Positions 6,101 through 60,084 of a DNA stretch of 64,000 nucleotides are shown here, piece by piece (within the stretch, counting starts at the first letter, position 1; each line of letters starts with the position of its first letter). The translations under genes were made by a program, and so were the position numbers. Where the stretch lies: positions 30,703-94,702 of the forward strand of contig CAYXMM010000005.1 in assembly GCA_964465945.1 (NCBI GenBank), in the 5' to 3' direction. Origin of the DNA: an uncultured Hyphomicrobiales bacterium (GTDB lineage Bacteria > Bacteroidota > Ignavibacteria > Kapaibacteriales > UBA2268). The notes under the pieces are model-generated. The model ran no database searches. It saw only the letters and a program-made list of their open reading frames with translations, and had not been told where the DNA came from.

Positions 6101-7269
6101 TATTTAGAAAATTTAAAGGCGTTTTCTAAATCTTCAATCAAGTCGGCGATATTTTCTATACCCACAGACAAACGAATTAAATTATCTGTTAATCCAATCT
6201 TCTCTCTTTCTGCTTTTGGTATTGAAGCATGTGTCATAATAGCAGGATGTTCAATCAAGCTTTCAACACCACCAAGACTCTCTGCTAACATAAATAAATG
6301 CACATTCTCTAAGAACTTTCTGGATGCTTCAATTCCACCTTTTATAAAGAAAGTAATCATTCCACCAAACCCAGACATCTGTTCTTTTGCTAAATTATGT
6401 TGCGGATGAGATTCTAACCCTGGATAGGTTACTTTTTCAACTTGTGGGTGCGATTCTAAATATTTTGCTACTTTCATTGCATTTTCATTATGACGATCCA
6501 TTCTCACACCAAGAGTTTTCACCCCACGCAAAACCAACCAACTATCAAAAGGCGATTGACTAGGTCCTATTGAATTTTGCAAATATTTTAAACGACTATA
6601 TATATCGTCATCACTTGTCATTATTGCCCCAGCCACAACATCACTATGTCCGTTTATATATTTACTCATTGAATGATAAGCAATATCTGCTCCTAATGTA
6701 ATTGGATTTTGAAAATAAGGACTCATAAAAGTATTATCCACTACGGACATTGCCCCAACTTCACGAGCAGCCGCTGTTAATTTTCGAATATCGCTAATCT
6801 TCAATAGGGGATTAGTAGGAGATTCTATCCATAATAATTTTGGTTTTAATGCTTTAAGTTTCGCAATAGTTTCATCTGTTTTTGTTGTGTCAGTAAAATG
6901 AAACTCAAAATCATTTTGCACTACATTTGTGAAAAGTCTATAAGTTCCACCATAAACATCATCTCCACATAAAACCTTATCACCTCTATTCAAAAGTTGA
7001 GTTATCAAATGGGTTGCACTCATACCAGTAGCAGTAACAACACAATATTTAGCATTTTCTAAACTCGCTAAACACTCTTCTAATCTAACTCTTGTTGGAT
7101 TATGCGTCCTTGAATACTCATACCCTTTGTGAATTCCAGGTGAAGATTGAACATAAGTTGAAGTTTGAAAAATCGGTGGTGAAATAGCACCAGTTGATGG
7201 GTCTGGCTCATTTCCAACGTGTAACGCTCTTGTGCTAAACCCTTTTTTTAAATAAAAATCCTTTTCCAT
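6100..7269 (-). CDS. PLP-dependent Cys/Met metabolism enzyme (cystathionine gamma-synthase/beta-lyase family)
   Basis: 389 aa; SMSKYINGHSD PLP-lysine motif, size and overall pattern of the MetB/MetC/MegL family. Confidence 0.8.
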   Translation of the reverse strand: MEKDFYLKKGFSTRALHVGNEPDPSTGAISPPIFQTSTYVQSSPGIHKGYEYSRTHNPTRVRLEECLASLENAKYCVVTATGMSATHLITQLLNRGDKVLCGDDVYGGTYRLFTNVVQNDFEFHFTDTTKTDETIAKLKALKPKLLWIESPTNPLLKISDIRKLTAAAREVGAMSVVDNTFMSPYFQNPITLGADIAYHSMSKYINGHSDVVAGAIMTSDDDIYSRLKYLQNSIGPSQSPFDSWLVLRGVKTLGVRMDRHNENAMKVAKYLESHPQVEKVTYPGLESHPQHNLAKEQMSGFGGMITFFIKGGIEASRKFLENVHLFMLAESLGGVESLIEHPAIMTHASIPKAEREKIGLTDNLIRLSVGIENIADLIEDLENAFKFSK

Positions 7270-7933: not shown

Positions 7934-8005
7934 AATTAAAAATGGTCCCTTCGTCTAGCGGTTAGGACATCGCCCTTTCACGGCGGTAACACGGGTTCGA
8001 GTCCC
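7934..8005 (+). tRNA. tRNA-Glu (anticodon UUC); its 3' end is the prophage attachment site
   Basis: Cloverleaf folded by hand: acceptor ggtccct/agggatc (one G-U pair), D stem gtct/ggac, anticodon stem tcgcc/ggcgg with loop cTTTCAc (U33, anticodon TTC, A37), T arm acggg-ttcgagt-cccgt, discriminator A; no encoded CCA. Confidence 0.85.
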
Positions 8006-8010
8006 GTAGG
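7992..8010. repeat. attL core: 19-bp direct repeat tcccgtagggatcacttaa (tRNA-Glu 3' end)
   Basis: Identical 19-mer at 60220-60238; the left copy overlaps the tRNA T-arm/acceptor 3' half. Confidence 0.8.
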
Positions 8011-8014
8011 GATC

Positions 8015-8046
8015 ACTTAATAAGAAGCGAGTTATTTATTTAACTC
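8015..8046 (+). terminator. Intrinsic terminator supplied by the prophage just after the reconstituted tRNA-Glu end
   Basis: aagcgagtt-atttattt-aactcgctt followed by tttttt; an A-run precedes it on the other strand, so it could also end the leftward tape-measure operon. Confidence 0.5.
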
Positions 8047-19328: not shown

Positions 19329-19345
19329 TTTAACCTCTTATTTAG

Positions 19346-19418
19346 TGGCAGGGGCACGACTCGAACGTGCGACCTCTGGCTTATGAAACCAGCGAGCTAC
19401 CAACTGCTCTACCCCGCT
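19346..19418 (-). tRNA. Phage-encoded tRNA-Met (anticodon CAU) inside the tail gene run
   Basis: Reverse complement gives AGCGGGG-TA-GAGC-AGTTGGTA-GCTC-G-CTGGT-TTCATAA-GCCAG-AGGTC-GCACG-TTCGAGT-CGTGC-CCCTGCC-A: canonical D, anticodon (U33-CAT-A37) and T arms; 1-72 pair is an A-C mismatch; no encoded CCA. Confidence 0.65.
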
Positions 19419-30760: not shown

Positions 30761-33001
30761 ATGGAGAATCAAGATAAATTAATATTACCAAGAATTAAAC
30801 AACTCGGCAAGGAATATAAAATTAATTCAAATTCAGTTTCATACTGGAATAGTTTAATTGATAATCCAGACGCTCTTTTAAAACGAATTGGCAAGGATAT
30901 TCAAGTTTATGATGATATGCTTAACGATTCACATCTTTATGCTGTGGTTCAGTCTCGAAAGAGTGGGGTTTTATCGAAAGAATGGGAACTCGACCAGTAT
31001 GATAGTGAGCAGAGTATATATGATTTTGTTGAAGTTGTACTTAATAATTTAGATATTCATGATTGTATTAGAAGTATTTTAGATGCTCCACTATTTGGAT
31101 TTCAACCTATTGAGATTATTTGGGAAGTGATTGACGGGAAGTTAATTCCTGTGAAACTTAATAAACGTCCGAGACAATATTTTAAATTTGATATTGATAA
31201 TAATTTGGTTTTTATTGATGATAATGGCTCAACTGAAATTACTCCAAATGATAAATTTTTAATTCCTCGCTACGAAGCCAGCCGTGATAATCCTTACGGA
31301 ACTCCTTTGCTATCTAAATGTTACTGGTCGATTGTTCTAAAGAATGATGCCCGTAAGTCTTGGTCAGTGTTTATTGAGAAATTTGGTATGCCGTGGGTGA
31401 AAACACTTTATAAATCGCAGAGGTATCAATCTCAAAAAGATGTCGACGATTTACTTGATAGAATTTATAGTTATTCCGCAGATTCTATGTTCGCTTTGCC
31501 TGATGATGTTGAGTTGGATTTAATAAATGGGACTCAAACCTCTTCATCTGAAATTTACAATGCTTTTATTAATAAATGTATGGAAGATGTGAGTGAGGTA
31601 ATCTTAGGGCATACTTCGGCTACTACTTCGACGCCTGGTAAATTAGGGAATGAGAATATGGCTCAAAGTGTGGTAGATAGGATTATAGAGTCAGATATGA
31701 TTTTGGTTGAATCTACTTTTAATACTTTAATTAAAAAAATAGTGGATTTGAACTTTAATACTAATCAATATCCTTATTTTAGATTGGTCGAAGAGCAAGA
31801 TATAAACAAAGATAGAGCCGAGAGAGATGCTATTTTGTATTCAATGGGATTGCGATTCACAGAAGATTACTATGTGCGTGAGTTTAATTATTATAAAGGT
31901 GATTTCACTTTAAGTAATAGCGATAATTTAGGAGATTTAAGCCCAAAAAAGCTTATGAATCCGAGTAATTTTATTAATATATTGAACTCGGACGATAAGG
32001 ATAAGATTGGCGAGAAAGAGCAAGAAGTTACAGACAAATTCATAGAGCATTTATTAGACCCAGATAAGAATGAGACTTTATTTACGGATTTAATCAAGCC
32101 AATTATTGATTATGCTGGCAAAAATAAACTTGATGATTTGAAAAAAAACTATTATAAAGCTTATAGCAAGATAGATGCAAGTGATTTTATTGAAATAATC
32201 GAACGAGCAATTCTCATTATTCAAATTTACGGCTTAAACTCGGTCGATGAAGAAGAAGAAGAGCAAAAAGACAGGTTTAATTACTTCAACAAAGATGATA
32301 TTTCTTTGCAAGATTTAATTTTTGCTTTGGATAAAGAGCCAGAAGAAATTGTTGCTTATTTTAGGTCAAAAGGAGTGAAAATTTCTGATGACTGGCAGGA
32401 TACTTTTAAAATTATCAAACAACACGCATTCACTGTTGCTGGTGTTGTTAAAATGGACTTATTGGTTGACTTTAAGGAGATGATTGAGAAAGCAATCAAA
32501 GAGGGATTAAGTCAAGAGGAGTTTAAGAAGCAGTTAAAGGAGAGATTTAAAGAGAAAGGTTGGCTGAAAGACAAAGATAATAATAAACTCATCGAACCTT
32601 GGAGATTAGATACAATTTACAGAACTAATCTTCAAGACGCTTTTATGCAGGGGCGATGGAACGGACACACTTTAAATATTAAGAATGCACCTTATGTGAT
32701 GTGTAGTTCGGTGATGGATAACTCAACGACATCGGATTGCCGTGCTTTAGACGGGCAAGTCTTCAGAATTGATGACGATTATTTTGCAAAGAATCTGCGA
32801 CCGCCAGGGCATTATAATTGCAGACGGATTACGATTTCTTTGAGTGAAAATTTAGTAAAAAAACGTGGGTATAAGGTAAATAAAGGTATTGATTTTAAAA
32901 ATCATCGTAATCAGAAAGGATTTGATAACAAAGGTAATCCTTGGTTACCTAATAAATCTGATTACCCAAGTGAATTATGGAAAGAATTTGAGAAAAAATA
33001 A
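30761..33001 (+). CDS. Portal protein fused to a Mu F-like minor head/morphogenesis domain
   Basis: 746 aa following TerL; C-terminal …DCRALDGQVF…PPGHYNCRRIT matches the Mu F-like domain signature. Confidence 0.7.
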   Translation: MENQDKLILPRIKQLGKEYKINSNSVSYWNSLIDNPDALLKRIGKDIQVYDDMLNDSHLYAVVQSRKSGVLSKEWELDQYDSEQSIYDFVEVVLNNLDIHDCIRSILDAPLFGFQPIEIIWEVIDGKLIPVKLNKRPRQYFKFDIDNNLVFIDDNGSTEITPNDKFLIPRYEASRDNPYGTPLLSKCYWSIVLKNDARKSWSVFIEKFGMPWVKTLYKSQRYQSQKDVDDLLDRIYSYSADSMFALPDDVELDLINGTQTSSSEIYNAFINKCMEDVSEVILGHTSATTSTPGKLGNENMAQSVVDRIIESDMILVESTFNTLIKKIVDLNFNTNQYPYFRLVEEQDINKDRAERDAILYSMGLRFTEDYYVREFNYYKGDFTLSNSDNLGDLSPKKLMNPSNFINILNSDDKDKIGEKEQEVTDKFIEHLLDPDKNETLFTDLIKPIIDYAGKNKLDDLKKNYYKAYSKIDASDFIEIIERAILIIQIYGLNSVDEEEEEQKDRFNYFNKDDISLQDLIFALDKEPEEIVAYFRSKGVKISDDWQDTFKIIKQHAFTVAGVVKMDLLVDFKEMIEKAIKEGLSQEEFKKQLKERFKEKGWLKDKDNNKLIEPWRLDTIYRTNLQDAFMQGRWNGHTLNIKNAPYVMCSSVMDNSTTSDCRALDGQVFRIDDDYFAKNLRPPGHYNCRRITISLSENLVKKRGYKVNKGIDFKNHRNQKGFDNKGNPWLPNKSDYPSELWKEFEKK

Positions 33002-33438
33002 TGATTGAATTTAATATTAACTCCGATGACCTGAATAATCAATTTGGTAAAATTCAAGGTGAAGTAAATAAAAAGATTGACCTCAAGAAAATATATAGAG
33101 GTGTCGGCGAGGTATTGCAGACGGCTGTTAACTTCCAATTTGAAGAAGAAGGGGCTTATTTAGGTAGGAAATGGGAGCCACTCGCAGCATCAACAATCGA
33201 AAGACGTAAGAAGTTAGGTAAATGGCCAGGTAGCATTATGCAGGTTACTGGGCGATTGAAGTCATCGTTTACTTATTCAATCGTTGGCAATTCGGTGATT
33301 ATAGGCACGAACGTATCTTATGCAAAAAAATTGCACTTTGGAATTGGACGAATGCCAGCTCGCCCTTTATTTACTTCACTGCTAAACGAAGAGACAAAGG
33401 ACGAGATTAAGCATGCTATTTTAAAGGGACTGGTGTAA
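33001..33438 (+). CDS. Virion morphogenesis protein (Mu G / Phage_tail_S-like)
   Basis: 145 aa; WEPLAASTIERRKKLG…IMQVTGRLKSSF matches the W.PL…R…G…tGrL.S signature of Mu gpG-like proteins. Confidence 0.55.
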   Translation: MIEFNINSDDLNNQFGKIQGEVNKKIDLKKIYRGVGEVLQTAVNFQFEEEGAYLGRKWEPLAASTIERRKKLGKWPGSIMQVTGRLKSSFTYSIVGNSVIIGTNVSYAKKLHFGIGRMPARPLFTSLLNEETKDEIKHAILKGLV

Positions 33439-33449
33439 TCTAATATTAT

Positions 33450-33947
33450 TTATACTTTATAAATTAAATTTCCTATTTTTTTAATTTTGTCTCTGATTTG
33501 ATTAAGTAGTTGTAGATTAACATTGTTTAAAGTTTCTTTTTTATTAGGGTTTAAATTTGGTTTTTCATACATGACAGAAATACACCTTTTCAATTCAAAG
33601 CATGAATCTTGAAGTATTTTTAATTTATCTTGGATATCTCCCTTTTGTATATCATAAAATATTGTATAATTTTGCATTGTTTCAATATTCTTTATAATAT
33701 TAATAAATACCTCTTCATATTTACTTAAATCAATGTTAATATAATTATTATTATATATTTGGTTTAGTTCAATTGCCGAATTTGACAGATAATTATAATA
33801 TTTTATTAATGTTTTAAAGTAATAATCATGCTCTCTTATTTTTTTGTTAATTCTAAGATAAATGTAAATTACTGCAATAAAATTTAATAATGATAAAAAA
33901 GAATTAAGTAAATCCCCGTATGTTATATCAGTCAAACAATTCATCAA
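33450..33947 (-). CDS. Small N-terminally membrane-anchored protein; third gene of the GHKL/STAS-like operon
   Basis: 165 aa; N-terminal TM (LLNSFLSLLNFIAVIYIYL), remainder soluble; ATGA start/stop overlap with the upstream gene. Confidence 0.4.
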   Translation of the reverse strand: MMNCLTDITYGDLLNSFLSLLNFIAVIYIYLRINKKIREHDYYFKTLIKYYNYLSNSAIELNQIYNNNYINIDLSKYEEVFINIIKNIETMQNYTIFYDIQKGDIQDKLKILQDSCFELKRCISVMYEKPNLNPNKKETLNNVNLQLLNQIRDKIKKIGNLIYKV

Positions 33948-34321
33948 TTGAGATATTCTCTATTAGCATTTGTAATATATTCATCTATTATTTCCCGAAT
34001 ATTTGAATTTTCCGTTGAAGTAATTATTAAAGTTTTTAAGACTCTGTCGCTTTTATATTTTCTAGACAATTCGCCAAATGATCCATCGTAAAAACTTGAA
34101 GGTCTAGTTAATAAATCGTCTACATTAACTACGAGTTTTACATTATTTTTTTCTGCTTCTAAAAATTTAGGTTCTAATATCGAATTTAAAAACCTTTCAC
34201 CTGAATTCTTCTCACCATTATTTTCTTCATTTAAATACCTCTTCCCAGGTACTTTTGAGAAGTCTGTTGCAATATTTATCATTAGATTATCCATTAAATT
34301 CCCAATAATAATACGTTCCAT
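33944..34321 (-). CDS. STAS-like (DUF4325-type) small protein
   Basis: 125 aa; VNVDDLLTRPSSFYDGSFGEL matches the …vDF.gV…sSF.DE.fg.L signature I recall for STAS-like DUF4325 proteins that partner with GHKL ATPases; overlaps upstream gene by 35 nt. Confidence 0.45.
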   Translation of the reverse strand: MERIIIGNLMDNLMINIATDFSKVPGKRYLNEENNGEKNSGERFLNSILEPKFLEAEKNNVKLVVNVDDLLTRPSSFYDGSFGELSRKYKSDRVLKTLIITSTENSNIREIIDEYITNANREYLN

Positions 34322-35279
34322 TAAAAGGAATGTTTTTTTCTATATACTCATCCTTTTGTGGTTCAGCCAAAATATTATTGGCAAAAATACGCAAATTTTG
34401 AATATTACCATCATTTAATATTTTATTGATAGTTGGTAATCCTCTACCTCTATGTTGTTCTTTTGTTCTTGACAAATTTGCCTCGTTTTTTAATATCATT
34501 TTTAGTTTTTCAGAAGCATTATAACTAATTAAACCTATATATTTTTTTTTATCTTCAATTGTGTTCATAATCCCTTTCCCGTGATCCATAAATACAAATT
34601 GAAATGCTTTTAAGTTGTTGTTGTAAAAAACACTAAGCCACCATTTTTCAGAGGAATTTTGCTCACCAGCATGTTCTGCCGTGTTATCCATTATTTCCGT
34701 AAGAACAGTCATACAATCAACGATTGTATCTTTGTTTATACTAGGAAATTTTGAATTTATAAATTTATAAATTTGTTCTATCAACTCTATGCTTCTATTT
34801 TCATATGCTAAAATTTGAAACATTTCACCAATACTATCATGCACATCAATGCCGGCTCCCTCTTTTGATGTATATTGATGGAAACCTGAATCTGAAATAA
34901 AAGTATCTACATCGTTACTTAAAGGTGATATAAATGAAATAAAATGTCTCTTTTGAGGGTATTTGTAAAACACTGAAACTAAATACATTAAAGTAGATGT
35001 ATCAGTTATACTAACATTTTCAAAACTCAATGCAACATACTTGTTATTGTTTATCAATTTTATTGCTGTATTTATTATTTTTTCAATTTCTTTATAATTT
35101 TGTAATAATTCTAAATTCTCTGGAAACTTTATTTCTTTCTTTTTTAGACTTGTTATAGGTGTTCCAATATTTTCTTGTTGTAATTGCCTTTTATTACTTT
35201 TCTTTTTCCTGTTTTTACGTTTATTTTCTTTTATTCTATTAAATTTCTTCCTTTCATTTGTAGTATGTAATTTTTTCAT
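34287..35279 (-). CDS. GHKL-superfamily ATPase (anti-sigma-factor-kinase/histidine-kinase-like) with a highly basic N-terminal tail
   Basis: 330 aa; MTVLTEIMDNTAEHAG (N-box E…N..H), FMDHGKGI (G1 box D.G.G), HRGRGLPTI (G2 box); N-terminal 40 aa are ~50% K/R. Confidence 0.5.
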   Translation of the reverse strand: MKKLHTTNERKKFNRIKENKRKNRKKKSNKRQLQQENIGTPITSLKKKEIKFPENLELLQNYKEIEKIINTAIKLINNNKYVALSFENVSITDTSTLMYLVSVFYKYPQKRHFISFISPLSNDVDTFISDSGFHQYTSKEGAGIDVHDSIGEMFQILAYENRSIELIEQIYKFINSKFPSINKDTIVDCMTVLTEIMDNTAEHAGEQNSSEKWWLSVFYNNNLKAFQFVFMDHGKGIMNTIEDKKKYIGLISYNASEKLKMILKNEANLSRTKEQHRGRGLPTINKILNDGNIQNLRIFANNILAEPQKDEYIEKNIPFNGTYYYWEFNG

Positions 35280-35441
35280 ATTCGTAAATTAGTTACTTCA
35301 CTTTAACATATTTTGTCGTATTCCAACATTCAAATTTAAGCCATTAATTCCAAACACGCAAGGGCTTTATGATTTTTTTTTGACTTCCTTACAAAATATT
35401 ATTTAATGTGATTAGGGATATTTTTATCTCCCTTTTCACAA

Positions 35442-35777
35442 TCACCACTCCCCAGATGCTATTATCGGATATTGCTTTGCTAAATGTGAAACATAAATCC
35501 AACAATCCAAATCGCCCTTGTAAGATATTACTTTGACTTTTACTCGCTGGTAAAAAGACGGAACACCTTCTAATTTATCTAATAAAGCCAGCGTTTTATC
35601 ATCGACTTCATAAACTTCACCTTTGATTTGTCCCTGCCCTTTGATTGCGAATGGAAATTGCGGTCCAGCGTGTAAATCAAACCCTTGTGCTACACCAAAG
35701 ATTGGTTTTAATGGGGAGAGCAACCTGTGATTTGGTTGCCCTTGCTTTAATGTTCCATAAACAAATACTAAATGCAT
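35442..35777 (-). CDS. AIG2/GGCT-fold gamma-glutamyl(amine) cyclotransferase-like protein
   Basis: 111 aa; VFVYGTLKQG motif and downstream GEVYEV…LDKLEG…YQRVKVKV with catalytic Glu, typical AIG2/GGACT. Confidence 0.75.
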   Translation of the reverse strand: MHLVFVYGTLKQGQPNHRLLSPLKPIFGVAQGFDLHAGPQFPFAIKGQGQIKGEVYEVDDKTLALLDKLEGVPSFYQRVKVKVISYKGDLDCWIYVSHLAKQYPIIASGEW

Positions 35778-36211
35778 TTTGTTACCTCTAATTTATTATA
35801 ATATTGTTTTGATAAAAACTCTTTACCTTTCAGCAAATGGTTTAAATATTTTTTACTAGGCTTTAGTCTAAAATCCACAAAGTAATTATTGGCTATGTAA
35901 ACGAAAGCCCATTTATAACCATACTTTGTTTTAACTAACATTTCAATTCGGTTATAATGAAAAGGGCAACCCTCAAATCTATCTAACTTTTTTATTTCGT
36001 TTTTACTTGCTAATTCATAAAGAACCCCTTCGACTTTTTCACCAATCTTATAATGAATATTAGCAAAGCCCTCACCCAATCGAAATGCTTTTTTTGAAAA
36101 TCTAAGTGTAGAATTTTCGATTGTTCCTTTCTCATAGCCAGTAAATTTCACTTGCCTTTCTATCATTCTTTCGACGTTCATATTTGAACCATAAGCGAAG
36201 TAGTAAAACAT
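35768..36211 (-). CDS. GGCT-fold gamma-glutamyl cyclotransferase-like protein (second paralogue)
   Basis: 147 aa; YFAYGSNMNVERM motif and VEGVLYEL…LDRFEG…YNRIEMLV. Confidence 0.75.
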   Translation of the reverse strand: MFYYFAYGSNMNVERMIERQVKFTGYEKGTIENSTLRFSKKAFRLGEGFANIHYKIGEKVEGVLYELASKNEIKKLDRFEGCPFHYNRIEMLVKTKYGYKWAFVYIANNYFVDFRLKPSKKYLNHLLKGKEFLSKQYYNKLEVTKCI

Positions 36212-36441
36212 TAAAGTTCCTCAACAAATTTATACTTGATTAAATCCTCTAAGAAATCTTCGCAGCAGTTAGACCTAATAATAACTGAATTATCTACATA
36301 ACATCTTTTTGCTGTTTCGGACATAAATAAATTAATATTATCTCTAAATCCGAATATTGAAAGTTGATTAAGTTGATTAACAAAATCAACTGGGTTCTGG
36401 GATTTAATTACTCCACCACCTAATAATTTATATTTTTTCAT
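36211..36441 (-). CDS. Small hypothetical protein (candidate substrate/partner of the amidoligase cassette)
   Basis: 76 aa; start overlaps stop of the downstream GGCT gene; Cys-rich middle (RSNCCEDF). Confidence 0.3.
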   Translation of the reverse strand: MKKYKLLGGGVIKSQNPVDFVNQLNQLSIFGFRDNINLFMSETAKRCYVDNSVIIRSNCCEDFLEDLIKYKFVEEL

Positions 36442-36515
36442 TTTATTACCCTTTATTTATTATTTTAAATTTTTCATTATCTAAATATTCACAGTTAATG
36501 CAGTCTGATGAGTTT

Positions 36516-36605
36516 TTACATTCTCATTGCTTCTTCTTTTGTGTATCTTTTTGCTTTCCAACTATTATTATTTTTGTCTACCCAATACCCTTTTTCTAAT
36601 TTCAT
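36516..36605 (-). CDS. Unannotated 29-aa basic peptide ORF (MKLEKGYWVDKNNNSWKAKRYTKEEAMRM) with a strong Shine-Dalgarno sequence
   Basis: AAGGAG 6 nt upstream of the ATG; sits between the amidoligase gene and the 76-aa ORF. Confidence 0.25.
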   Translation of the reverse strand: MKLEKGYWVDKNNNSWKAKRYTKEEAMRM

Positions 36606-36636
36606 TTTAAACTCCTTTTGAGAAAAGAGAGGTTGG

Positions 36637-37566
36637 CTAAGCTGCCAACTCTCTTGTTCTGTTTTGAAAATAATTTATTAAATCGTTGTTTAAAAATCTT
36701 CTTAAGTTTACATCATCAGCATTTTCGATTTCTGTTCGTTTGGAAATCTCAATCAATCTTGCTAAAAATTTTATCCAGTTTGAAATTTTCTCAAAACTTA
36801 CTGAAGCCCCATGTTGTCTAAATTCTACTGAATTTTGTCTCCAAAATGATTGAGTATTTAATTTATAATATCTACTTTGATTTGTTATTAAACTTTCAAT
36901 CTCTCTTAAACTTATTGCATTGTCAATTTTTATTTTATAATTAGCTACTTTCATTGTGTGGCAGTAGCTGTTAGAATTTCCTCTTCTTGATTGTGGCATA
37001 AATCCATCAATCCAAGTTTCTAAGTTTGCATAATTTTTATATAAATTTTTCCAAGTTTCCAATTCAAAGTTCGAAGCATCAAAGTGAATATGAACTCCAC
37101 AAGATTTGTTTGTTTTTGCTTCTAAGCCCCTTGTGATTAAAAGTACTGTTTTAAGTTGTCTTAATCCATCTTCGCCTTGTAATTTTGGTGAAACAATTTC
37201 AAAAGAATTAGCACCTTGAAGTGAAGCGTCCCTTACAATTTTCCAATGGTCTCTTGTTTGGTGATTGTAGCCTTCGGCGTTTGTGTTAATTCCTGCGTTT
37301 CTTAGTTCAGTTTCTAATTCTTGCATTTTAATTCCAAAAGCTTCAATCTCAACTCCAAAAGTATGGTTGAATTGGAAGTTTGTTAATGAAGTGCTTATTC
37401 TTGTGTTAAGTTGTGCCTCAGCCCATTTTTTATGAACGTTGAAAGCAAATCCGTAATTTGTTCCAAGTAATTCAGCAACTTGATTTCTTGTCAATCCCAA
37501 ATCAAAAAGCAATCTCATTTTTGCTGTTTTGTTTAGCGTGCTGTTTATTATTTGTTCTTGTGTCAT
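36637..37566 (-). CDS. Putative amidoligase (Amidoligase_2 / glutamine-synthetase-like COOH-NH2 ligase family)
   Basis: 309 aa; N-terminal FGVEIEAFG motif and overall size fit the Amidoligase_2 family, which Pfam describes as occurring next to AIG2-type cyclotransferases. Confidence 0.55.
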   Translation of the reverse strand: MTQEQIINSTLNKTAKMRLLFDLGLTRNQVAELLGTNYGFAFNVHKKWAEAQLNTRISTSLTNFQFNHTFGVEIEAFGIKMQELETELRNAGINTNAEGYNHQTRDHWKIVRDASLQGANSFEIVSPKLQGEDGLRQLKTVLLITRGLEAKTNKSCGVHIHFDASNFELETWKNLYKNYANLETWIDGFMPQSRRGNSNSYCHTMKVANYKIKIDNAISLREIESLITNQSRYYKLNTQSFWRQNSVEFRQHGASVSFEKISNWIKFLARLIEISKRTEIENADDVNLRRFLNNDLINYFQNRTRELAA

Positions 37567-37760
37567 TTTATAACTCCTTGTTTATTAAGTATTTAATTAA
37601 TTGTTTTAATTTAAAAGCAACTTAACACTTAATCTCTTGCAAGTCAAGTCATAACTTGTTTATTTTCAAGTAATTATAAAATAAAGTTATCCACTACGGA
37701 ATTTTCAATAATTTTGACAAAGAACGACAATAATTTTTCTTTTGGGTTTGATTTTACCTC

Positions 37761-37994
37761 GTGATTTTATTAACTAAAAATTTATTATTTTTGCAAATGA
37801 CATTAACCGAATTAATTTATTCAGATTTAGAGAAAAGGCGACTCTTTTACCTTAATTCAAACGAAGAAGAACTAAGGCAATTATATAGTGAAATCAATAG
37901 CTTTGAAGATGTAAGAGAAGCAAAGTTAATTAAAAAAGAACTTGGATTATTAATTAATTTACTTTATAAGCCGATTAAGATTAAATCAACTTAA
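37761..37994 (+). CDS. Small hypothetical protein
   Basis: 77-aa ORF, the only plus-strand ORF between two minus-strand blocks. Confidence 0.2.
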   Translation: MILLTKNLLFLQMTLTELIYSDLEKRRLFYLNSNEEELRQLYSEINSFEDVREAKLIKKELGLLINLLYKPIKIKST

Positions 37995-38261
37995 TTTTTT
38001 TATTAAAGTTTTATAATTAATTCCTAATTCTTTTGCTATCTTTTGCTTACTAACATTTTTATACTTATCCTGCTTGATTACTCGTTCTACGACTCTGTCG
38101 AAATAAAGCAACGACGGAATATAAATTTGAACTCCGCTATAAAGCTCAATAAGTTTTTTCATTGCATCAATCCCAATAATGTGGGCAATCTCTTGGAGCT
38201 GTTCTTTTGCTCTCAAATCCTCAAATGCTATATTTTCTATTATTTCTTTTTTTATACTCAT
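37986..38261 (-). CDS. Small helix-turn-helix DNA-binding protein
   Basis: 91 aa; C-terminal KQKIAKELGINYKTLIKKL is an HTH. Confidence 0.35.
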   Translation of the reverse strand: MSIKKEIIENIAFEDLRAKEQLQEIAHIIGIDAMKKLIELYSGVQIYIPSLLYFDRVVERVIKQDKYKNVSKQKIAKELGINYKTLIKKLS

Positions 38262-38384
38262 TTTTCCTCCATATTTACGCTGTATTGAATTTTAATTTTA
38301 ATTTTGGTATCTTTATACACTCTCTGTCGCTTCGTTTAACCTACCCTCAATTCTGCAACAAATCGGGCATAATAAGCAAGTCCA

Positions 38385-38777
38385 TTAATCCGATTTTTGT
38401 TCTACATAATTTAAAACTTCCTCCCAAGAGTCGGTTACCAAGATTGAATTTCCGAATTTTGCTGCGAGTGAAATAAAATCTTTCTGGGCTTCACGGAGTT
38501 TTCCAGTTTTGGATTTAACCTCTACCATCAGGATTTTATTATTTTTAATTGCTATTAAATCTGGGAAGCCAGCTGTTGCTCCGTTATTCATAATCTGATA
38601 AAATCTAACAAGACGTTTGCCGATAGCACGGACTCCTGAGTTAATTCTAACAACAAGATATTTTTTTAATTTAAGAACTTCGATGATTTTACTTTGAATT
38701 TCACTTTCAGATTCATCAACAAAGATTCTTTTTTGCAAATTAGAATTTCGGTTCATTGTCTCCCTCAAATTCATCAT
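38385..38777 (-). CDS. VRR-NUC (PD-(D/E)xK) nuclease
   Basis: 130 aa; GFPDLIAI…MVEVKSKTGKL…Q matches the D…E.K restriction-endonuclease-like core of VRR-NUC. Confidence 0.55.
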   Translation of the reverse strand: MMNLRETMNRNSNLQKRIFVDESESEIQSKIIEVLKLKKYLVVRINSGVRAIGKRLVRFYQIMNNGATAGFPDLIAIKNNKILMVEVKSKTGKLREAQKDFISLAAKFGNSILVTDSWEEVLNYVEQKSD

Positions 38778-58911: not shown

Positions 58912-60084
58912 TTATTCCAAAGCACTCCTTACAGCATTTACTGCTTCACTTTGAGTAATTTTAACATATTCATCGAATGAACGTCTATTACGATGACCTG
59001 TTATTTTCATAATTTGTTCTGGAAGTAATCCTTTACGGAGTAATCTTGTTATAAAAGTTCGACGTGCTGTGTGGCTGGATATTAATTCATACTTTGGTTT
59101 AATTGTATCAACTCTTTTGCCACCTCTCCAAGAAGTTACGAGTGTAGGAGCATCTATTCCAGCAAGTTTACAGACTTCTTTAATATATTGATTGTATTTA
59201 ACATCAGAAATTACTGGCAATACATTCTGATATTTATCAAATATCGTTAAAATTGATGAAGAAATAGGTATTCTAATTATTTCTGCAGTTTTTATTGTTA
59301 TTGTATGTAGCTCTTTACGTTTAATATTGATATTTTCAGGTTTTAAATTTAGTAAGTCAGATATTCGTAGTCCAGTATAACATTGAATTAAAAATAAATC
59401 TTTTACTTTTTGTAGTCGATGGTTTAATTCAACGTTTTTAATCTCCGTAATTTCGTCTTCATCTAAAGCAATTAATGTAGAATAATAATTATTTAACTCA
59501 ACTTTAAAAGAGTTTAAATAGTTAATATTATAGTTAGGATTTTGTCTCGAATATTCTCTTATTATTGTTTTAAATCTCTTCATTATTCTAACGATGTAAG
59601 AATTACTATACTCATTTCGCATTAGATATTCTTTAAAATCAATTAATACGTTAAGATTTATATTGTTGAAATCAAGATTAGGATTAAATTTATATATTAA
59701 ATTGCTAAAAACCGAATATGTAACTTGTGTCTTCTCATTTGCATATTTTGACTTATACTTGTTAATAAAATCAATAACTTTCGAATTAGAACTCTTCTTG
59801 GAGTTATAATTGCAAATAATATCTTCAATAGATGTAATATTAAAATTATTATAATTATTTATTATTAAATACTCTTGAATTAGTTCTGACAAATTCTTTA
59901 TTTTTGTATTTAAGAGAAAAGAATTCTTATCTATTGATTTTACAATTTGTTTTTTTGCGTCCCAATTTTTAGATTTAACAGAAATATTTGTCGTTATTCT
60001 GTATCTATGATTTAGATGTCGTAAGTCAAGATAAATTCTACTTGTTTCTTTTGTCCTATCTTTTAAATATAATCTGAATTTCAT
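58912..60084 (-). CDS. Tyrosine site-specific integrase
   Basis: 390 aa; C-terminal catalytic domain with …R… HTARRTF … GHRNRRSFDEYVKI (R-H-R-Y pattern); adjacent to attR. Confidence 0.85.
   Translation of the reverse strand: MKFRLYLKDRTKETSRIYLDLRHLNHRYRITTNISVKSKNWDAKKQIVKSIDKNSFLLNTKIKNLSELIQEYLIINNYNNFNITSIEDIICNYNSKKSSNSKVIDFINKYKSKYANEKTQVTYSVFSNLIYKFNPNLDFNNINLNVLIDFKEYLMRNEYSNSYIVRIMKRFKTIIREYSRQNPNYNINYLNSFKVELNNYYSTLIALDEDEITEIKNVELNHRLQKVKDLFLIQCYTGLRISDLLNLKPENINIKRKELHTITIKTAEIIRIPISSSILTIFDKYQNVLPVISDVKYNQYIKEVCKLAGIDAPTLVTSWRGGKRVDTIKPKYELISSHTARRTFITRLLRKGLLPEQIMKITGHRNRRSFDEYVKITQSEAVNAVRSALE

Follow-up and report, generated by a model that had tools for sequence, protein, structure and literature searches.

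A phage-borne amidoligase with a conserved 76-residue partner and two accessory cyclotransferases

Genes of the Amidoligase_2 family are common in phages, and since 2009 their function has been predicted from genomic context only. Here we analyzed one such gene in a stretch of 64,000 nucleotides (contig CAYXMM010000005.1 of assembly GCA_964465945.1; the whole stretch is termed the window below), where it heads a cassette of minus-strand genes carried by a prophage. An initial annotation of this DNA had described the cassette as a full set for peptide ligation, consisting of a 309-residue amidoligase, two γ-glutamyl cyclotransferases and two small open reading frames (ORFs) of 29 and 76 residues. 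All five ORFs are present where they had been placed (Table 1), but the conserved unit is smaller than that set. Comparison across related loci revealed a minimal unit of the amidoligase and a previously unnamed 76-residue partner protein, to which the cyclotransferases are an optional addition, whereas the 29-residue ORF is debris; in this form the problem becomes easier to test. We tentatively favor, at somewhat less than an even chance, a mechanism in which an ATP-dependent γ-glutamyl-type ligase cooperates with an adaptor, and two further, optional enzymes remove the bond. The gain from the analysis is a clearer parts list rather than a system of a new class. The locus is genuine and coherent and lends itself to experiment, although hundreds of phage loci resemble it.

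Comparison of the window proteins with 26 related loci by tblastn revealed that the 76-residue partner (orf76), and not the cyclotransferases, is the most consistent neighbor of the ligase. Using profiles built in this analysis, and counting the partner as linked if its start falls within about -150 to +72 nucleotides of the ligase stop, we found it directly after the ligase in 102 of 109 ligase loci. The same holds for 75 of the 79 IMG/VR loci, which took no part in building the partner profile, and three of the four exceptions among them end at most 31 nucleotides past the ligase stop. The start of the partner gene often overlaps the stop of the ligase gene. Look-ups anchored on diverse members of the partner family returned three contigs with upstream sequence, and in each of them the ligase gene immediately precedes the partner. 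By contrast, a GGCT-fold gene lies within 5 kb downstream of the amidoligase in only 16 of the 109 loci, and we therefore regard the cyclotransferases as accessories of a ligase-partner core. Their association with the ligase does extend beyond this prophage, as the initial annotation had proposed: an identical four-gene order is found in four Opitutales loci (three of them near-identical), the ligases of which share only 45-46% identity with that of the window, and in one further locus, and amidoligase and GGCT-fold genes co-occur in additional lineages. Members of PF12224 reportedly lie in neighborhoods with either AIG2-type cyclotransferases or glutamine-amidotransferase-like peptidases. 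In line with the second arrangement, a divergent locus has a gene for an N-terminal-Cys hydrolase-like protein after the ligase in place of a cyclotransferase.

The 309-residue protein matches the Amidoligase_2 profile PF12224 along nearly its entire length (profile positions 3-244 of 245) with an E-value of 6.4e-41 and 141.3 bits against a cut-off of 22, and phrog_2443, annotated as "amidoligase enzyme", with an E-value of 1.4e-45, in agreement with the family to which it had been assigned by its N-terminal motif. NCBIfam gave no matches. In an AlphaFold2 model with a predicted local distance difference test (pLDDT) score of 91, a four-helix N-terminal domain (about residues 1-55) is followed by a disordered linker and then by the catalytic domain of the glutamine-synthetase-like carboxylate-amine ligases (residues 68-271). 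Structural similarity search of the catalytic domain using Foldseek retrieved the YbdK-type ligases 1tt4 and 1r8g and glutamine synthetases as best PDB matches, with a probability of ~1.0 and TM-scores of only ~0.4; the protein thus models as a glutamine synthetase/YbdK-like fold, while phmmer found no significant relative of the ligase in the PDB. Nine residues, E73, E75, E123, H159, H161, R194, E248, R250 and H252, are invariant among 42 homologs. Such acidic, histidine and arginine residues are typical of active sites of the glutamine synthetase fold, and they would be expected to map onto the catalytic residues of glutamine synthetase. In the N-terminal domain, K13, K16, R27, G39 and N43 are invariant in the subfamily; the modeled domain looks like a helix-turn-helix, and sequence search against the PDB returned nothing significant for it.

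This subfamily of amidoligases, defined by the helix-turn-helix-like N-terminal domain together with the 76-residue partner, is encoded by at least 455 IMG/VR contigs. The closest relatives of the window ligase are sequences from Kapaibacterium/Ignavibacteria (52-56% identity), from Opitutales and Bacteroidota, and from phages of Porphyromonas gingivalis. In the window, a Shine-Dalgarno sequence (AAGGAG) lies 8 nucleotides upstream of the ligase ATG. A terminator-like, G+C-rich hairpin directly follows the ligase stop, the stem of which reaches, by eye, agagagttggc/gccaacctctct, followed by TTTTCT. This hairpin is kept in two contigs of sister phages (L027 and L031), and could attenuate read-through from the ligase into the partner and cyclotransferase genes.

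The 76-residue partner has no match in Pfam, PHROGs, PADLOC or NCBIfam, and sequence search against the PDB gave nothing significant for it. An exhaustive profile search detected 1339 representative clusters of this family at E-values of at most 1e-3, and among the 150 best-scoring matches listed, nearly all are stand-alone proteins of 75-90 residues. The partner is predicted to be a small acidic protein of β-β-α-α-α-β topology, with a folded model (pLDDT 94) and a median isoelectric point of 5.0 for the family. Alignment of 148 members revealed a conserved hydrophobic core in addition to G9, [FY]39-M40, R46, G52, F63 and L67, among which R46 (82%) is the only well conserved polar residue. No conserved column of Lys, Cys, Glu or Asp was found in these members (the best acidic position, D66, reaches 62%), nor was any conserved Ser found in the family alignment, and both termini vary. 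Moreover, a Clostridia contig (L017, positions 6261-6905) encodes a 214-residue fusion of a GGCT-fold domain with a C-terminal partner domain, directly following a ligase that lacks the helix-turn-helix-like domain; the partner domain of this fusion is still detected with an E-value of 2.5e-8 by a profile built without that sequence. The fusion ties the partner functionally to the cyclotransferase. The 76-residue ORF had been proposed as a simple peptide substrate, a role that is difficult to maintain for a folded protein whose widespread family conserves neither an acceptor residue nor a terminus. As the partner has no reactive conserved residues, is folded and can be fused to a cyclotransferase, we favor an adaptor or regulatory subunit instead.

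Comparison of the partner genes of the window and L027 (8001-8231) showed 70% amino-acid identity, with a synonymous divergence (dS) of 1.78, which is saturated, and a ratio of nonsynonymous to synonymous divergence (dN/dS) of 0.10. By contrast, the flanking genes are 95-97% identical and have a dS of 0.13-0.25 between the same two sequences, and most flanking proteins are 95-100% identical between the sister contigs and the window. These sequence comparisons indicate that the partner gene was replaced by a divergent allele through recombination, leaving a mosaic. The low dN/dS marks the partner as a protein under purifying selection, and positive selection as the source of its divergence was ruled out by the same values, which point to allele replacement. 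We also considered whether substitutions on the ligase surface co-vary with the partner allele; they do not, as in L028 the partner allele is of the L027 type while the ligase residues are those of the window. A 72-residue ORF of a Bacillus phage was unsupported as a member of the partner family after its removal from the profile.

In contrast to the partner, the 29-residue ORF lies outside the conserved cassette. Its product matches only positions 1-28 of the 276-position profile phrog_15341 (E-value 9e-7), and at the same place the sister contigs L027 (7739-7996) and L028 (7465-7722) have an intact gene for an 85-residue Cys-rich repeat protein, which begins with the 28 residues found in the window ORF and matches phrog_15341 at 5e-18. 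The N-terminus of this protein is conserved (MKLEKGYWVDKNNNSWKAKRF...) and leads into Cys-rich pentapeptide-like repeats (IDCVDCVNCYNSIGSVDCKNSNSLIDCWN...). A three-way DNA alignment including L031 revealed that the window copy, compared to L027, has lost ~100 bp of the repeat region and carries a TCA-to-TAA change. The L031 copy (2286-2465) is shortened differently, with an in-frame TGA after 38 codons, which is either a nonsense mutation or recoding, and a C-terminal frame that is open beyond it; the deletions in both copies fall in the repeat region. The 29-residue ORF is thus a decayed N-terminal remnant of the 85-residue gene. It lies in a ligase-partner gap of 195 nucleotides in the window, compared to at most 72 nucleotides in the other loci, and no phrog_15341-type gene was found between ligase and partner in the amidoligase loci outside the sister phages of the window. 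Being a remnant, at a position that is empty in these other loci, it does not belong to the conserved components and is implausible as a substrate; the proposal that it encodes a substrate peptide no longer holds.

Both cyclotransferases belong to the GGCT/AIG2 group, as first suggested, and both retain the catalytic glutamate on alignment. The 147-residue protein (GGCT147) matches PF06094 with an E-value of 1.4e-12 (48.6 bits against a cut-off of 22.8) in addition to PF13772 (1.8e-9) and phrog_2520, whereas the 111-residue protein (GGCT111) matches PF06094 (GGACT) with an E-value of 1.2e-26 (94.1 bits against the same cut-off) and phrog_2520. The best solved relative of GGCT147 is human GGCT (2pn7, E-value 7.6e-5), with the catalytic Glu aligned in LDRFEG; for GGCT111 the best solved relatives are GGACT/A2LD1 structures (2kl2, 1vkb and 3jub, E-value 2.8e-13), with the catalytic Glu aligned in LDKLEG. 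The Glu lines up with "EQEG" in human GGCT and with "DFED" in GGACT, motifs that we take to contain the catalytic Glu of these enzymes. Residues Y7 and G8 of the YG motif and E80 are invariant across both groups; for GGCT147, D77, Y86 and Y105 are invariant as well. Thus, human GGCT (C7orf24) and GGACT (A2LD1) share the YG motif and the catalytic Glu with the window proteins, which are shorter and have low identity to them. The two proteins had been called paralogous; they do share fold and family, but they are not close paralogs, with 24% identity over 90 residues, and each is closer to its Opitutales counterpart than to its neighbor. Their sequences suggest two subfamilies of different specificity class, one GGCT-like and the other GGACT-like. 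The start of GGCT147 overlaps the stop of orf76 by 1 nucleotide, and GGCT111 overlaps GGCT147 by 10 nucleotides, all head to tail; the hairpin and the decayed 29-residue gene stand between the ligase and this run of three genes.

Glutamine synthetase, GshA/YbdK, PuuA and PafA activate the γ-carboxylate of glutamate, and enzymes of the GGCT fold cleave γ-glutamyl amides, giving 5-oxoproline. Because of these known chemistries, the pairing of ligase and cyclotransferase points to the formation and removal of a γ-glutamyl amide. In the mechanism that we favor, the core would be an ATP-dependent carboxylate-amine ligase of the glutamine synthetase fold, in complex with the small, acidic and non-catalytic partner. 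By analogy with other ligases of this fold, the enzyme would convert the γ-carboxylate of glutamate to an acyl phosphate and couple this to an amine of a host or phage molecule; candidates are the side chain of a protein Lys, a precursor of the cell wall and a small amine, with nucleic acid as the least likely target. The partner would most likely act as an adaptor or regulatory subunit, and together with the helix-turn-helix-like domain of the ligase it may select or gate the target. The cyclotransferases, probably translationally coupled to the partner gene, would cleave the γ-glutamyl amides by cyclization to 5-oxoproline, and may thereby reverse or limit the modification, or clear by-products.

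A bolder form of this proposal, which we consider rather unlikely, is that the amidoligase, the 76-residue protein and the two cyclotransferases make up a reversible γ-glutamylation system of writer, adaptor and erasers, with which phages would mark one specific macromolecule of host or phage (an envelope precursor, or a protein at a Lys) in the lysogenic state or while infecting. If true, phage-host conflict would include a post-translational modification that is both new and widespread, its specificity being set by the 76-residue family. More generally, if the ligase product turns out to be a modified protein or envelope component, phage-host interactions would gain a new enzymatic layer; a metabolite would mean a new auxiliary metabolic function.

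Several points weigh against the favored mechanism. The γ-glutamyl chemistry is borrowed by analogy from other ligases of the glutamine synthetase fold, the substrate is not readable from the sequence, and if both worked on free glutamate and a free amine, ligase and cyclotransferase would together run a futile cycle. About 85% of the loci are without cyclotransferases, and thus the eraser step would not be essential to the core function. The sole Pfam match of the N-terminal domain is insignificant (HTH_23, E-value 0.13), which weakens the helix-turn-helix call. Furthermore, no characterized member of PF12224 was found; as the initial annotation had presumed, the searchable literature yielded no biochemical or structural study, a 2023 paper states that the functions of the family "remain to be explored", and papers from 2023-2025 still call the function unexplored.

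Compared to glutamine synthetase, YbdK/GshA (of the γ-glutamyl-cysteine ligase type) and PuuA, which include the best structural matches of its model, the window ligase has the acidic, His and Arg residues conserved; however, it shows no sequence similarity to them by phmmer, gives TM-scores of only ~0.4 as stated above, and is smaller, its 309 residues including the extra N-terminal domain. The best mechanistic precedent for the ligase-cyclotransferase pairing, by analogy, is butirosin biosynthesis, in which the ATP-dependent ligase BtrJ installs a γ-glutamyl group that the GGCT-fold enzyme BtrG later removes as 5-oxoproline. BtrJ, however, is an ATP-grasp ligase acting on an intermediate bound to a carrier protein, whereas the window cassette has neither a carrier protein (there being no conserved Ser in orf76) nor a biosynthetic cluster. 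Pupylation offers another parallel: the glutamine-synthetase-fold ligase PafA forms a γ-glutamyl-Lys isopeptide with a small protein, Pup, and Dop removes the mark. Nevertheless, Pup is disordered and has a conserved C-terminal Gln/Glu, whereas the 76-residue protein is a folded domain whose termini vary and which conserves neither an acceptor nor a donor residue, and the putative remover in the window has a GGCT fold, whereas Dop is a paralog of the ligase.

Among phage-borne systems, the "peptidoglycan modification module" of LUZ24-like and phiEco32-type phages also combines an amidoligase-type ligase with a GGCT-fold enzyme. This module, the function of which is predicted only, comprises GGCT, ATP-grasp, aminohydrolase/glutamine amidotransferase (GATase), amidoligase and COOH-NH2 ligase genes, whereas no ATP-grasp or glutamine-amidotransferase-like Pfam domain was found in ten genes around the window cassette; the host range differs as well, given the kin of the window ligase in Kapaibacterium/Ignavibacteria, Bacteroidota, Opitutales and Porphyromonas phages. 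The same ligase family and GGCT-fold association in phages and prophages is found in the neighborhoods of PF12224 and in PHROGs 2443 and 2520. The amidoligase-cyclotransferase association in phages is thus already established as a genomic prediction in Pfam, PHROGs and, as later papers cite it, the study of Iyer, Abhiman, Burroughs and Aravind (2009, Mol Biosyst 5:1636). What sets the window subfamily apart from these general neighborhoods is the extra helix-turn-helix-like domain, the near-constant 76-residue partner and the status of the cyclotransferases as a minority accessory.

Five other explanations were weighed against the ligase-adaptor mechanism. The layout of an enzyme gene and a small acidic protein gene, adjacent and overlapping in most loci, resembles a toxin-antitoxin or abortive-infection pair, in which a toxic amidoligase would be restrained by an inhibitor or immunity partner that is released on infection or stress, and the cyclotransferases would detoxify the products. 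Small protein inhibitors of enzymes of the glutamine synthetase fold are known, such as the cyanobacterial IF7/IF17, the helix-turn-helix-like domain could autoregulate, and the variable cargo region of relatives holds HicAB and SocA_Panacea. We still consider such a pair unlikely. Seven proteins searched against PADLOC-DB 2.0 at E-values of at most 0.01 gave no match to defense-system models, for any component of the cassette. Upstream of the ligase, the search for operator-like repeats returned weak AT-rich matches only, none of them convincing, and comparison of this region with the sister phages was uninformative because it is ~99% identical. Moreover, the partner lies downstream of the enzyme, with the hairpin and an inserted gene between them in this lineage, an arrangement that is risky for an antitoxin. 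A locus in which the partner adjoins a truncated ligase (L018) speaks neither for nor against such a pair.

Alternatively, the ligase might act in the cytoplasm on an envelope precursor, such as the stem peptide of peptidoglycan, where it would add or alter a residue and so change receptors or sensitivity to lysis, for example in superinfection exclusion. The stem peptide contains a γ-D-glutamyl linkage. In the loci of gut Bacteroidales phages, an endolysin-like gene and small membrane proteins are encoded ~1 kb upstream; however, proximity to lysis or head genes is also usual for phage cargo genes. A role in the cell wall is the reading that later papers usually cite from Iyer et al. (2009). 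The modules described in the literature have ATP-grasp and glutamine-amidotransferase-like genes that the window cassette lacks, Pfam detected no signal peptide or cell-wall-binding domain in the cassette, and the helix-turn-helix-like domain and the soluble acidic partner would be left unexplained, all of which makes this explanation, too, an unlikely one.

It is quite unlikely that the cassette serves small-molecule metabolism, with the ligase γ-glutamylating a free amine (a polyamine or amino acid) and the cyclotransferases yielding 5-oxoproline and the amine, for amine sequestration or as a cycle consuming glutamate and ATP. Such a role would have parallels in PuuA and GlnA3, which have the glutamine synthetase fold and γ-glutamylate polyamines, and in GGCT and GGACT, which act on free γ-glutamyl compounds. 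A metabolic ligase, however, would not usually have a conserved non-catalytic partner or a helix-turn-helix-like domain, most loci do without cyclotransferases, and no transporter or other metabolic gene is linked. As a possible clue to a ligand, a riboswitch was sought by an Rfam scan of positions 33000-38500, which found nothing.

The model of the initial annotation, in which the amidoligase tags the 29- and 76-residue products with Glu or peptides and the cyclotransferases remove these tags, is improbable in the light of the results above. The tight linkage of the 76-residue gene to the ligase would suit it, and pairs of a ligase and a small protein are known elsewhere, as in Pup/PafA. Yet one of the two proposed substrates is a pseudogene remnant, and the other is a compact folded domain rather than a disordered tag, belongs to a family in which the termini vary and no acceptor Lys, Cys, Glu or Asp is conserved, and is fused in L017 to the C-terminus of a cyclotransferase, which suits an adaptor better than a consumable substrate. 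Finally, it is very improbable that the helix-turn-helix-like domain, with its invariant Lys, Arg and Asn, takes the ligase to DNA or RNA for amidating a carboxylated base or linking an amino acid to a modified base: amidoligase-domain genes do co-occur with thymidine-hypermodification genes in some viral contigs, but the helix-turn-helix call is not significant, the phage is temperate and integrated, and the prophage, in which an N6/N4 methylase is the only DNA-modification gene noted, shows no 5-hydroxymethyldeoxyuridine (5-hmdU) kinase, deoxyuridine monophosphate (dUMP) hydroxymethylase, aGPT-Pplase or TET/JBP-type gene.

The setting of the cassette in the accessory region of a prophage, as originally described, is borne out by a tRNA-Glu gene at the left border, an integrase gene at the right border and host metabolic genes outside these bounds (Table 1). 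Integration probably took place at the tRNA-Glu gene. Mu-type portal and gpG-like head genes adjoin the cassette, and a megablast search with 20 kb found no match among cultured phages.

Table 1. Positions of the cassette genes and of other features of the prophage in the window.
Feature	Position	Strand	Basis
Amidoligase ORF, 309 residues	36637-37566	minus	ORF list and PF12224/phrog_2443 matches
29-residue ORF, remnant of phrog_15341 gene	36516-36605	minus	PHROG match and DNA alignment
Partner ORF, 76 residues (orf76)	36211-36441	minus	profile built in this analysis and linkage
GGCT-like ORF, 147 residues (GGCT147)	35768-36211	minus	PF06094, PF13772, phrog_2520
GGACT-like ORF, 111 residues (GGCT111)	35442-35777	minus	PF06094, phrog_2520
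Terminator-like hairpin directly 3' of amidoligase stop	36632-36650	minus	consensus scan and by eye
tRNA-Glu (TTC), left prophage border	7944-8016	plus	
Integrase, right prophage border	58912-60084		
tRNA-Met (CAT) within prophage tail-gene region	19345-19418	minus	
GHKL-like gene	34287-35279	minus	weak HATPase_c matches, phrog_3364
STAS-like/DUF4325 gene	33944-34321	minus	
HNH endonuclease gene, 277 residues	41337-42170	minus	

Between the cyclotransferases and the gpG-like and portal genes lies a variable cargo slot (33450-35279, minus strand), which in the window contains genes for a GHKL-like ATPase and a STAS-like DUF4325 protein in addition to a 165-residue ORF. In sister phages, the same slot is filled by either a 148-residue ORF and a DUF2628-like protein, or SocA_Panacea and a 133-residue ORF. 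Because the sister phages hold different cargo there, we treat the GHKL and STAS genes as separate from the cassette, and the functional tie to them implied by the initial annotation finds no support. Homologs of the GHKL and STAS genes also occur ~4 kb from the ligase in a Pontibacter locus.

In Porphyromonas phages (L001, 7312-7946) and in a related metagenomic contig (L113, 3808-4450), a HicA/HicB pair is located shortly downstream of the ligase-partner pair, a placement that fits the site as a cargo hotspot. Elsewhere in the prophage, the HNH gene, which lies between the Lin1244_N replication gene and the helicase gene, resembles a mobile insertion of the homing type. Sister contig L029 has an identical copy, whereas L027 and L028 lack the gene at that position.

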